From NCBI GenBank assembly GCA_030426875.1, contig JAUHXI010000001.1:1-28901 (forward strand): a stretch of 28,901 nt of DNA, in the 5' to 3' direction. Positions 23,451 through 26,497 of the stretch are shown piece after piece. Within the stretch, counting starts at the first letter, position 1, and every line of letters begins with the position of its first letter. The stretch comes from a bacterium (GTDB lineage: Bacteria > Patescibacteriota > Gracilibacteria > UM-FILTER-43-11). The translations under genes were made by a program, and so were the position numbers. Under the pieces are notes generated by a model that saw only the letters and a list, made by a program, of their open reading frames with translations, was not told the origin of the DNA and did not search any database.

Positions 23451-23939
23451 CTATTTTAAGTAGCTTTCAAAGCGAATGAAGTGACAGGTGTATCCGCCCG
23501 GATTTTTCACCAAATAGTCCTGATGAACCTCTTCAGCCAGCCAAAATTTTTCGAATTTTTCGAGCGAAGTGACAACAGGATCTGACCATCGCCCTGAGTC
23601 ATTCACCACTTCAATAAATGCTTCTGCCGCTTTTTCTTCTTCATCATTCTGATAAAAAATTGCTGACCGATAGCTTGAACCTCGGTCGTTGCCTTGCTGG
23701 TTTAAAGTGGTAGGATCGTGCACTCGAAAAAAGAAATCTAACAGTTGTTTGAAGGATATTTTCTCCGGATCATACTCAATTTTTAAGGTTTCAGCATGAC
23801 CGGGGTGAAAGTCCCACGTAGGATTTTCGTTTTTACCGCCAGTGTATCCCGTTTTGGTATCTTTAACGCCTTCCAAGCCTCTAAAAAGATCTTCCAAGCC
23901 CCAAAAGCAACCGCCAGCGAGATAGGCTTTTTTATTCAT
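23451..23939 (-). CDS. msrA: Peptide-methionine (S)-S-oxide reductase MsrA, cytoplasmic, with a C-terminal resolving Cys
   Basis: LAGGCFWG, TGYTGG, GHAE, HDPTTLNQQGND.GSSYRSAIF, AEE.HQDYL..NP.GYTCH; no signal peptide. Confidence 0.95.
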   Translation of the reverse strand: MNKKAYLAGGCFWGLEDLFRGLEGVKDTKTGYTGGKNENPTWDFHPGHAETLKIEYDPEKISFKQLLDFFFRVHDPTTLNQQGNDRGSSYRSAIFYQNDEEEKAAEAFIEVVNDSGRWSDPVVTSLEKFEKFWLAEEVHQDYLVKNPGGYTCHFIRFESYLK

Positions 23940-24066
23940 TTTGATTTGAGTTATGGTCAGTTGAAATGATTATTATATAATTCTGAAGTCAAAGCAAAAG
24001 ATTGTACTTCTTAGCTTATAATCAGGTAGAATCAGAGTGCATTAAAAATAAAATAAGGTAAAAAAA

Positions 24067-24348
24067 ATGAACCCCATCTACATCGGCTCAACGGGTGCTG
24101 CACTCATTCTGCTAGCTTTCGTTTTAGGTCAATTGCACAAATGGAAAGATACGTATTTTGTCTATGATTTCGTCAATTTGGTGGGATCGGGGCTGCTGAT
24201 TTGGTACGCGATTTTACTCTCGAGTTGGCCTTTTTTGGTTTTGAATGGTGTGTGGGCCCTGGTGTCACTGAGGGATTGTGTGTCAGATTTGAAGCGAAAT
24301 ACAAGAAAGGGGAAGGCACTTGGAGGCTGGGATAAGTGGATGTACTAG
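24067..24348 (+). CDS. CBU_0592-like small membrane protein (three TM helices)
   Basis: IGS.GA.LIL.AF.L.Q......Y..VNLVGS.LL..YA.L..SWPF.VLN.VWA.VS pattern. Confidence 0.75.
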   Translation: MNPIYIGSTGAALILLAFVLGQLHKWKDTYFVYDFVNLVGSGLLIWYAILLSSWPFLVLNGVWALVSLRDCVSDLKRNTRKGKALGGWDKWMY

Positions 24349-24420
24349 CGTTTGATTTGAAATTTATGATGACTGATTTCATATTTTTTTGAGTTATTTT
24401 TAAGGATAAATTTAAATTAA

Positions 24421-24621
24421 ATGGCTTCATATCTTGATAATATGAAAAATATGAAGCAAAGAAATTACATTCAGGCTAGGAATTTGAAAAAAGAAGCGAA
24501 AGAGCGTTTGAAAAATTACAATTCAATTCTCAGTAGAACCCGAAAGGATTATGAAATCTTGAGAAAAAGCAGTGTTTCATGCAACGCTTTCTCAATCAGT
24601 GGTAAACATTCAAAAAAATAA
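24421..24621 (+). CDS. 5' fragment of a putative RelE/BECR-fold nuclease-like gene, ending at an A7 run
   Basis: Ends ...DYEILRKSSVSCNAFSISGKHSKK-TAA. The -1 frame continues directly into 24624-24923. Confidence 0.55.
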   Translation: MASYLDNMKNMKQRNYIQARNLKKEAKERLKNYNSILSRTRKDYEILRKSSVSCNAFSISGKHSKK

Positions 24622-24623
24622 CA

Positions 24624-24923
24624 GTGACCCGACAATGTTGGAATCATGTTTTTAAACATCCGGTAAAACGCTCAACAAAAATAGAAAAATTGGAACGAGC
24701 ACTAGCCCTTCCTATGGCCATCAAATTACTCGAAAAAACCACCACTTATCAGGAGGTTTGCCGAGAAAAAGATAAAGGTGGGAATGATTACCTATTTTTT
24801 GCTATTATTGGTTATGTGAGAGGTAATCGAATAAAAGTCATTGTTCGAAAACAAAGTAAAAATACCAACGCAAAATACATTTTGTTTTCATTCTTCCAAA
24901 TGTCCACCCAGTCTAAAAAATAA
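24624..24923 (+). CDS. 3' fragment of the putative RelE/BECR-fold (PBECR/LPD3-like) nuclease
   Basis: (IT)VTRQCWNHVFKH..KRS...ER..ALP.A.KLLE..TTYQE......YLFFAIIG......IKVIVRK......LFSFF fits a recalled CPR-widespread family (Y..i..v.CP.l..V.fn..G.nH....R....rl.LL......QEy......w.l......kVi.rk......FwSv). The nuclease call is inference. Confidence 0.6.
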   Translation: MTRQCWNHVFKHPVKRSTKIEKLERALALPMAIKLLEKTTTYQEVCREKDKGGNDYLFFAIIGYVRGNRIKVIVRKQSKNTNAKYILFSFFQMSTQSKK

Positions 24924-24973
24924 ATTTGTACTTAAGGCTATTTAGTTAAATAGCATTATTCACACACTTACAC

Positions 24974-25067
24974 AAAAAAAGAGGGTTGTCTTCGACTCCA
25001 CTCGCTAATGCGTAGTTGGCCGGATCAAGGAGCTCTCAAAAATTAAGAACAGAACCTTTCAACCCTT
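24974..25067 (-). ncRNA. Candidate ~94-nt small RNA convergent with the nuclease-like gene
   Basis: It lies between a strong minus-strand promoter (25102-25074) and a hairpin plus T7 (25003-24974). The 5' AGGGTTG is complementary to the 3' CAACCCT. No Rfam family was recognised. Confidence 0.45.
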
Positions 25068-25073
25068 ATCTCA

Positions 25074-25102
25074 AGCATAACATAAGGCTAATAAATAATC
25101 AA
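25074..25102 (-). promoter_or_regulatory. sigma70 promoter TTGATT-N17-TATGCT with extended TGn, antisense to fumC
   Basis: + strand AATCAA 25097-25102 and AGCATA 25074-25079; 17-nt spacer; TG at 25082-25081 on the minus strand. Confidence 0.6.
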
Positions 25103-25108
25103 TCCAAA

Positions 25109-26497
25109 ATGACCCACCGCAGCGAAAAAGACACCATGGGCGAGCTCCAGGTTCCCGCAGAAAAATACTGGGGAGCCCAGACTCAGCGTTCGCTCCAGAA
25201 TTTTGAAATCGGAGGTGAAGCGATGAAAATGCCGCTCGAAATCATTCATGCTTTTGCCTTTTTGAAGAAGGCAGCGGCTCAAACCAATCAGACATTGGGA
25301 GTATTGTCAGAAGAAAAATCAGAAATCATTGCAAGCGTTTGTGATGAGATTCTGGAAGGGAAATGGGATGATCACTTTCCGCTTGTCGTGTGGCAAACAG
25401 GCTCTGGCACCCAGAGCAACATGAATGTGAATGAGGTGATTGCCAACCGGGCCCACGTTTTGCTCGGGGGGAAATTGGAGGACCTAGAGAAGGCCATTCA
25501 CCCAAATGATGATGTGAATCAGTCTCAATCTTCGAACGATACCTTTCCTACAGCCATGCACATTGCAGGGTATAAAATAGTGGTGGAACACACCATTCCC
25601 GCCGTAGAAAAATTGAGAGACCAGTTGAAAATAAAAGCCGTGGCCTTTGGTGATGTGGTCAAAATTGGCCGCACGCATTTGATGGATGCGACCCCGCTAA
25701 CGCTTGGCCAGGAGTTTTCCGGGTATGTCTCTCAGCTGGATCACGGACTGATTGCTCTCAGAAATACGCTTCCTCACCTTTCTGAGCTGGCCTTGGGTGG
25801 CACGGCAGTGGGCACGGGTTTGAACACACCCGAAGCTTATGCAGAAAAAGTAGCCGAGAAGATTGCTGAATTGACTGATCACCCCTTCGTCACCGCTCCC
25901 AATAAATTTGAGGCTTTGGCAACTCATGATGCGATTGTTGAAAGTTCGGGGGCACTCAAGCAATTGGCGGTGAGTTTGATGAAGATTGCCAATGACATTC
26001 GTCTGCTGGCCTCTGGGCCGCGTTGTGGGATCGGTGAACTCAACCTTCCTGCCAATGAACCGGGGTCGTCCATCATGCCGGGGAAGGTGAATCCGACGCA
26101 ACCTGAGGCGTTGACGATGGTCTGTGCTCAGGTGATGGGGAATGATGTAGCGATTTCGATGGGAGGCATGCAGGGGCACTTTCAATTGAATGTGTTTAAA
26201 CCGATGATGATTTACAATTTCTTGAATTCAGCTCGGTTGTTGGCAGATGCATGTCGATCATTTGAGAAAAATTGTGTGGCAGGATTGATGCCCAATCATG
26301 AAAAAATTGAAGCGCATTTGAATGATTCATTGATGTTGGTGACGGCTTTAAATCCTCATATTGGCTATGAAAAAGCGGCTGCAATTGCTAAAAAAGCCCA
26401 TGAGGAGGGGGTCACGCTGAAGGAGGCGGCGGTGTCTCTTGGCTATCTGACAAAGGAGGAGTTTGAGCAGTGGGTGAGGCCAGAAAAAATGATTTGA
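25109..26497 (+). CDS. fumC: Class II fumarate hydratase FumC (462 aa)
   Basis: [59 protein letters not shown], signature [26 protein letters not shown]. Start is set at ATG 25109, not TTG 25016. Confidence 0.97.

Follow-up and report, generated by a model that had tools for sequence, protein, structure and literature searches.

We analysed a stretch of 28,901 nucleotides (nt) from a bacterium of the Gracilibacteria, comprising positions 1 to 28,901 of the forward strand of contig JAUHXI010000001.1 (assembly GCA_030426875.1), which we refer to as the window. Its minus strand carries, at 24979-25069, a real structured RNA gene that is conserved with covariation. This small RNA (sRNA) gene lies tail to tail with a predicted ribonuclease (RNase) gene, with 55 nt between the stop codon and the RNA in the window. 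From the comparison of homologous sequences, we infer that the two genes may form an undescribed accessory module of candidate-phyla-radiation bacteria, in which a toxic RNase would be controlled by an RNA antitoxin. We give this interpretation a probability of about one half.

To compare the two genes across bacteria, homologous loci were gathered from species-representative genomes, metagenome contigs and a sample of genomes of the same class. The RNA alignment contains 31 non-identical loci from Peregrinibacteria/Patescibacteria assemblies, while promoter features were counted over 30 loci. The RNA was present at every locus having both a full-length protein and sufficient downstream sequence, and its strand was always opposite to that of the protein gene. 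Between the window (24983-25065) and the sequence downstream of the orthologous gene in G019, a genome from the same family but a different genus, identity was 81% for the RNA and 69% for coding DNA. When the alignment was read as a three-way junction, canonical pairs made up 98.3% of the 863 pair cells, and compensatory two-sided changes occurred in 11 of the 28 pairs, in 43 cells. None of the 500 column shuffles reached the observed values of pairing or compensation, and a control in which the partners were slid by 1-3 columns was approximately 41% paired.

The changes can be followed helix by helix. Compensatory changes affect four of the seven pairs of P1, where GGGUUG/CAACCC is replaced by GGGCUG/CAGCCC, GCCCUG/CAGGGC or GGUGCUG/CAGCACC. 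In P2a, AAGG/CCUU becomes AGGG/CCCU (locus L032) or GAGG/CCUC (L063 and L064), and in P3 CGC/GCG becomes CCC/GGG in four loci. All 11 pairs of the P4/P3 arm are 100% canonical, with one-sided changes turning G·U into A-U or G-C. The alignment also includes 91 G·U cells, and canonical pairing is 98.3% on the minus strand of the window versus 88.3% on the opposite strand. Since these cells would become A·C on the plus strand, the RNA belongs to the minus strand. GNRA or UUCG tetraloops usually cap the two hairpins, and their varying length rules out a coding reading. The near-invariant parts of the RNA are the junction and bulge nucleotides.

The RNAalifold consensus consists of P1 (7 bp), which closes both ends, P2a (4 bp), P2b (6 bp) and the P4/P3 arm (11 bp with two bulges), whose loop is GNRA in most homologs as opposed to AUUA in the window (Table 1). 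An earlier, sequence-only reading of the window had proposed either a closed 5'-3' fold or two alternative states acting as a switch. The closed fold was borne out, as it covaries; the switch was not, because only the closed three-way junction shows covariation. Likewise, the local hairpin drawn in that reading (GAG-T-GG-A-GTC...GAC-AA-CC-CTC) is not the conserved fold, as its GUCG pairs with CGGC and CAACCCU pairs with the 5' end. By itself, the window sequence is weak evidence for an sRNA (a 98-nt single-sequence fold had z = -1.43 versus shuffles), and it is the comparison that settles it. No minus-strand open reading frame (ORF) lies between the promoter and terminator features of the sRNA in the window.

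We next compared the RNA with known families. Rfam 15 gave no match at the gathering score, either in the window or at the G019 locus. At thresholds relaxed to E = 10, no match overlapped 24979-25069, and three chance-level matches fell elsewhere in 24300-25200; a housekeeping RNA, which the sequence-only reading had proposed to look for in Rfam, was not matched. ARAGORN found no transfer RNA or transfer-messenger RNA. Signal recognition particle RNA, hammerhead and tRNA-like folds were considered by eye and set aside because junction lengths and core motifs disagree. A search of the genome for second copies with a 14-nt core pattern gave chance matches only, and the covariance model R1 (88 positions, 28 pairs) found a single copy in the 1.48-Mb assembly. 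The RNA is therefore a new family, well backed by covariation, and its covariance model is fit for Rfam-style curation.

The promoter of the sRNA is conserved in position. In the window it stands 7 nt upstream of P1 and agrees with the consensus at 8 of 12 positions, and a generic promoter scan did not list it. Across the homologs, a TATAAT-like -10 box with at least five of six matches occurs 6-8 nt upstream of P1 in 23 of the 30 loci, and a -35 box with at least four of six matches is present in 17, its TTGnnn lying 16-18 nt upstream of the -10. TTGATT-17-TGT-TATGCT in the window occupies exactly this position. The extended -10 (TGn) of the sequence-only reading is indeed present in the window but recurs in only six of the 30 loci, so we do not claim it as a family feature. 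An inverted repeat (CCTTAT-N12-ATAAGG, 25064-25087) covers the promoter, and at 6 bp it is short enough to arise by chance. These elements, together with the AGGGUUG/CAACCCU pairing, the T7 run and the ORF-free stretch, all lie where the sequence-only reading had placed them. Its central proposal of a self-contained minus-strand sRNA converging on the protein gene also held, as the pair is conserved, the fold covaries in 31 loci and the promoter is kept at the same distance. Both the covariation and the convergent promoter that it expected downstream of homologous genes were thus found (RNAalifold with none of 500 shuffles; -10 box in 23 of 30).

The 3' end of the RNA is more variable. A U run right after P1 is present in five of the 30 loci, the window included, and is not conserved; the T7 run is no general end feature of the family. 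In about 11 of the 31 loci, a hairpin followed by a U run is found 26-44 nt past P1, where it covers the end of the coding sequence (CDS), and the loci with neither arrangement have no recognisable terminator. The RNA 3' end lies -2 to 29 nt from the stop codon in most homologous loci, compared with 55 nt in the window. The earlier statement that the RNA is clear of the CDS is correct for the window, where the gap and the U7 run predict no overlap; in the third or so of the loci with a terminator over the CDS 3' end, overlap is possible. At several loci (L028, L030 and L027), A-rich DNA encodes a Lys/Glu-rich C-terminal tail of the protein and its complement is the U run of the sRNA terminator 26-44 nt beyond P1, so that the same bases serve both.

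Searches with R1 followed the RNA into more distant relatives of the protein. It was found convergent with and abutting the gene at L063 and L064 (protein 47-49% identical; E about 1e-14), in a shorter form lacking P2b at L023 and L024 (homologs of 131 and 137 aa, 31-35% identical; E about 1e-7), and at L070 (protein 23% identical; E 7e-4). At this last locus, a TTGACA-17-CATAAT promoter is followed by a minimal three-way junction, and a bidirectional terminator separates RNA and CDS, making antisense overlap impossible there. By eye, L071 has the same layout. Among 151 genomes sampled from the class, eight carry the RNA, in seven of them beside the protein gene; the protein is present in 10 of 251 genomes of the class, in a patchy manner. 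The remaining RNA is an orphan in G048 (L077:1501-1601, plus strand; G048:C3:44155-44255); it has a promoter and a U run of its own, and nowhere in this genome (85% complete) was a protein homolog detectable. The neighbours of the orphan are a 230-aa membrane-protein-like ORF on the minus strand and, on the other side, a 332-aa ORF on the plus strand. All-against-all BLAST of the flanking ORFs from 23 loci revealed no conserved neighbouring protein, only spurious ORFs overlapping the RNA, in agreement with the earlier view that the RNase-like gene has no protein antitoxin. The distribution of the module is patchy and insertion-like, typical of toxin-antitoxin or defence genes.

What does the convergent gene encode? 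An intact ortholog of 173 aa (P0001) is present in G019. The protein family has 84 members in a collection of 5.8 billion proteins, all of ~150-180 aa, none with a Pfam domain, and with sources named Peregrinibacteria or Patescibacteria; a profile search of 1.84 billion representatives added a wider set of relatives of 115-172 aa. The AlphaFold model (pLDDT 90.6) shows N-terminal helices followed by a strand (63-66), two helices (69-76 and 85-104) and four strands (110-115, 121-131, 134-143 and 151-158), which agrees with the BECR core of N-terminal helix or helices and a four-stranded antiparallel sheet. In an exhaustive structure scan of the PDB, most of the best rows were RNase toxins of the BECR fold (CdiA-CT, T4 RegB, BrnT, several RelE structures, colicin D, MqsR and ParE); they align with residues about 61-163, at Z of 3.1-4.5. 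Foldseek against the PDB gave nothing below E 0.04, and against the AlphaFold DB clusters it gave polyvalent-protein domains, PBECR3, MqsR and DUF4258 (E 1e-4 to 1e-1). Among the language-model neighbours were PBECR1/2/3, LPD3 and MuF_C clusters.

Sequence profiles were less telling. Of 35 proteins from the wider family, 12 match Pfam LPD3, though under its threshold (best E 2.8e-05), and ten distant members scanned individually scored up to 20.7 bits versus a cut-off of 27. Pfam gave no match for the window protein and 37 close relatives, NCBIfam and PADLOC assigned no family to the RNase-like ORFs of the window, a sequence profile against PDB chains returned nothing, and the protein family reached none of the Pfam gathering scores for RelE/ParE, PBECR1-5 and LPD3. 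The protein belongs to no curated family, as far as these searches reach. In a wide alignment (A5), H74 is invariant, and conservation reaches at least 90% at R91, A98, Q109 and S155. The first core helix contains H74, and the last strand contains S155. The active site of PBECR and colicin D-like RNases combines a His in the N-terminal helix with a C-terminal Ser/Thr (Iyer et al. 2017, PMC5512222), and the H74/S155 layout matches this description. Because the model, the weak structure matches, the language-model neighbours, the sub-threshold LPD3 scores and the His and Ser concur, the protein quite likely has the BECR fold and is probably an RNase, with catalysis predicted. The RelE/BECR guess of the sequence-only reading gains several weak but concordant lines in its favour, including the pattern of His and C-terminal Ser.

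In the window, the RNase-like gene is broken while the RNA gene is intact. Judged by its translation, the pair of ORFs at 24421-24621 and 24624-24923 is one gene broken by the loss of one A, since a -1 shift at tcA AAA AAA TAA (or one more A) restores ...SKKITVTRQCW as in the orthologs. The same A7 is found in assemblies of two sequencing runs that are probably the source data, and a 99%-identical contig obtained in an unrelated study of sediment (run X3, over 24465-24725) has the extra A and an intact frame. At L039 the frame is lost at the same poly-A run (A6, about 250-290) and at a second place, again with the RNA intact, and the protein gene of L053 is intact. The poly-A run could be a hypermutable on/off site, or could allow low-level rescue by slippage, as A AAA AAA directly precedes TAA. 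With a depth of about 6, a sequencing error at this run keeps some residual likelihood.

Our model suggests that the first gene would encode a toxic RNase, a protein of ~165 aa with an N-terminal helical hairpin and a BECR core (strand, two helices, four strands). The second gene, on the opposite strand, would use its own sigma-70-type promoter to produce an ~88-nt three-way-junction RNA (P1; P2a/P2b; P4/P3), and this abundant sRNA would keep the RNase inactive. The most likely route would be direct binding of the folded RNA to the RNase, as in type III systems and AbiF/RCd22, with convergent transcription or antisense overlap at the 3' end adding an effect where the two genes touch. If the RNA were lost, for example when a phage shuts off transcription, the RNase would be freed. 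In the window, the RNase would be off through the one-base loss in the poly-A run, next to an intact RNA gene. A toxin with an RNA antidote fits the data because there is no protein partner, the RNA is structured and has a promoter, the distribution is patchy, broken genes stand beside intact RNAs, and an orphan RNA exists. We favour direct binding because the unpaired junction nucleotides are near-invariant, because the pair persists where overlap is blocked (by the terminator at L070; by U7 and the spacer in the window), and because the orphan copy keeps promoter and terminator. More tentatively, and at somewhat less than even odds, the module would represent a new class of RNA antitoxin, in which a BECR RNase is held by a directly binding, single, convergent three-way-junction sRNA; it would be largely confined to the candidate phyla radiation, and the RelE/BECR superfamily would gain its first known RNA antidote.

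Several points weigh against this model. The anatomy of type III systems, with tandem RNA repeats upstream on the same strand, is absent here, and the fold is assigned on weak scores (best Z 4.5; no Foldseek match in the PDB below E 0.04; LPD3 under its cut-off). Furthermore, the RNA ends less than 30 nt from the stop codon in most loci and a terminator covers the end of the CDS in about 11 of 31, so that antisense could be the main mechanism instead, and an antisense component is not to be dismissed. Such an sRNA would be type I-like: it would pair with the 3' end of the convergent messenger RNA (mRNA), or act by transcriptional collision, lowering mRNA stability or blocking read-through, with the fold serving RNA stability only. 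Convergent, nearly touching genes fit this account, as do the distal hairpin-plus-U terminators, and no mRNA terminator is visible before the RNA gene. However, the junction and bulge nucleotides are near-invariant although the proteins are only 50-60% identical, and pairing with a 3' untranslated region needs no such thing. Further points against it are the 55-nt spacer and U7 that part RNA and CDS in the window, the bidirectional terminator that does so at L070, and the orphan RNA, which has a promoter and a terminator of its own but no gene beside it. The RNA showed no extra complementarity to the 5' region of the mRNA, the mean z of RNAduplex versus shuffles being about 0 in a crude comparison that allowed long duplexes, and the protein is not a small hydrophobic peptide. 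We consider antisense control as the main mechanism unlikely.

Alternatively, RNA and protein could form a dedicated ribonucleoprotein that is no toxin-antitoxin pair, with the RNA as cofactor, scaffold, guide or natural substrate of a BECR-like protein acting as a processing enzyme or an RNA-directed defence RNase. In favour of this, the RNA and protein families co-vary across large distances, and conservation of the RNA core is very strong; moreover, the inactive PBECR domain of phage Mu MuF is predicted to act via RNA binding (PMC5512222). In contrast, the catalytic-type His and Ser are invariant here, the distribution is patchy, and the protein gene is repeatedly broken with the RNA kept, or missing beside the orphan, which is better explained by an antidote outliving its poison than by a cofactor outliving its enzyme. 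For these reasons, this alternative appears improbable to us. Far less probable still is a plus-strand element, which would serve the protein gene as a terminator or an element of its 3' untranslated region, or would serve fumC, the next gene downstream, as a leader or riboswitch. The RNA does sit between two plus-strand genes in the window, with fumC starting just past its -35 box, yet on the plus strand the 91 G·U cells become A·C mismatches, the conserved -10 and -35 boxes face the other way, and no U run follows the element. In addition, L002 has no fumC-sized ORF after the RNA, and no neighbouring protein is conserved across the 23 loci.

Returning to the toxin and RNA-antidote module, its surroundings suggest a variable slot. 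The ORF listing of the window shows 185 nt without a credible ORF between 24923 and fumC, and the G+C content of the interval 24001-25000 is 35%, against 40-48% in the surroundings. G002, a genome of the same genus, has the orthologous membrane protein gene and fumC, with an unrelated 204-aa ORF between them (L082:2965-3579, minus strand). Because no flanking protein is kept, an unrelated gene fills the slot in G002 and the G+C content is low, the module looks like cargo between the membrane protein gene and fumC. The fumC ATG (25109) is 7 nt past the -35 box of the sRNA promoter; any fumC transcript therefore starts within or upstream of the RNA gene and runs antisense through it, and the inserted module may affect fumC expression. 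The spacer of 55 nt between the stop codon and the U7 run contains a near-perfect palindrome, GCTATTTA-GT-TAAATAGC (24937-24956), a possible terminator or processing hairpin of one or the other transcript. In G019 (contig C37), the module is bordered by G+C-rich stretches without convincing ORFs or an Rfam match (L002:1100-1300 and 2180-2500), in sharp contrast to the A+T-rich module itself.

Table 1. Coordinates of the sRNA, the RNase-like gene and neighbouring features in the window.
Feature	Position	Strand	Basis or remark
Structured sRNA, ~88 nt, three-way junction	24979-25069	-	Match to covariance model R1 (cmsearch 88.8 bits, E 6e-23)
P1, 5' strand AGGGUUG	25060-25066	-	Exact complement of 24982-24988
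P1, 3' strand CAACCCU	24982-24988	-	RNAalifold consensus and pair counts
P2 arm	25027-25058	-	P2a: AAGG (25058-25055) pairs with CCUU (25030-25027)
P2b hairpin inside P2 arm	GUUCUU 25050-25045 / GAGAGC 25037-25032	-	Includes conserved U·G pair
P4/P3 arm, outer	within 24993-25022	-	CGGCC (25022-25018) pairs with G (24998) and GUCG (24996-24993)
P4/P3 arm, inner	ACU+CGC (25016-25010) / GCG+AGU (25005-25000)	-	Bulged A, AUUA loop
sRNA promoter	25074-25102	-	-35 TTGATT (25102-25097), 17-nt spacer, TGT, -10 TATGCT (25079-25074); read from sequence
U7 run directly after P1	24974-24980	-	Likely 3' end in the window; read from sequence
Predicted BECR-fold (PBECR/LPD3-like) ribonuclease gene	24421-24923	+	Split: 24421-24621 (66 aa) and 24624-24923 (99 aa)
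A7 run, site of frame loss	24612-24618	+	One A fewer than intact form
Weak promoter-like site ahead of the RNase-like gene, TTGAAA-17-CATATT	24357-24385	+	Consensus scan, 9 of 12 matches
CBU_0592-family membrane protein gene, 93 aa	24067-24348		NCBIfam E 1e-8
fumC	25109-26497	+	Next plus-strand gene after the RNase-like gene

Finally, we compared the module with known systems. Type III systems (ToxIN, CptIN and TenpIN) consist of an endoribonuclease and a tandem-repeat RNA. This RNA is encoded upstream of the toxin gene in the same orientation, both are co-transcribed by way of a terminator, and the toxin cleaves the RNA into its units. Our module would share with them an endoribonuclease with a dedicated non-coding RNA and no protein antitoxin, a small, mobile and patchy character, and the direct RNA-protein binding proposed here. 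In contrast, its RNA forms one three-way-junction unit, encoded downstream on the opposite strand under its own promoter. Tandem Repeats Finder detected no repeats in 23900-25300, and all 31 loci carry one RNA unit each. To our knowledge, toxins of the ToxN type are not BECR-fold proteins. In the convergent type I pairs of Bacillus, txpA/RatA and bsrG/SR4, the toxins are small membrane peptides and the RNAs act by pairing, with structures that are not known to be conserved across phyla. The tail-to-tail order is common to these pairs and our module, as is a 3' overlap, predicted here in about a third of the loci; unlike them, the module has a ~165-aa soluble alpha/beta RNase-like protein, and an RNA core conserved independently of the CDS.

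A closer parallel in the RNA itself is AbiF (Abi_2) with RCd22 (abiF RNA motif, RF03085), a structured RNA of ~100 nt that is transcribed from its own sigma-A promoter, binds and neutralises a toxic RNA-targeting protein, and also lowers AbiF expression (PMC12373285). Here, too, a structured RNA of similar size with its own promoter stands beside a predicted RNA-targeting protein, for which we propose neutralisation by binding. The arrangement differs, as RCd22 is upstream on the same strand, has two abiF motif copies and is co-transcribed with abiF (PMC12373285). RF03085 itself had no match in the window.

BECR/RelE-fold RNases are among the commonest toxins of bacterial conflict systems. The protein described here shares its predicted fold and the His and Ser/Thr layout with the PBECR and LPD3 domains of phage and conjugative-element polyvalent proteins and with RelE/ParE toxins, and stand-alone PBECR/LPD3-type versions occur in conflict systems (PMC5512222). 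Unlike our module, however, the known partners there are protein antitoxins or immunity proteins. In the literature that we searched, no RNA partner is reported for BECR, PBECR or LPD3 proteins, and this RNA is not described. Whatever the mechanism, the new RNA family stands on its covariation. If our model is correct, the module would be a first testable toxin or defence system in candidate-phyla-radiation bacteria, a group with tiny genomes that are little understood. It would also extend RNA-antitoxin biology past the ToxN, CptN, TenpN and AbiF families, and the BECR/RelE fold would acquire a new mode of control, through a structured RNA partner dedicated to it.

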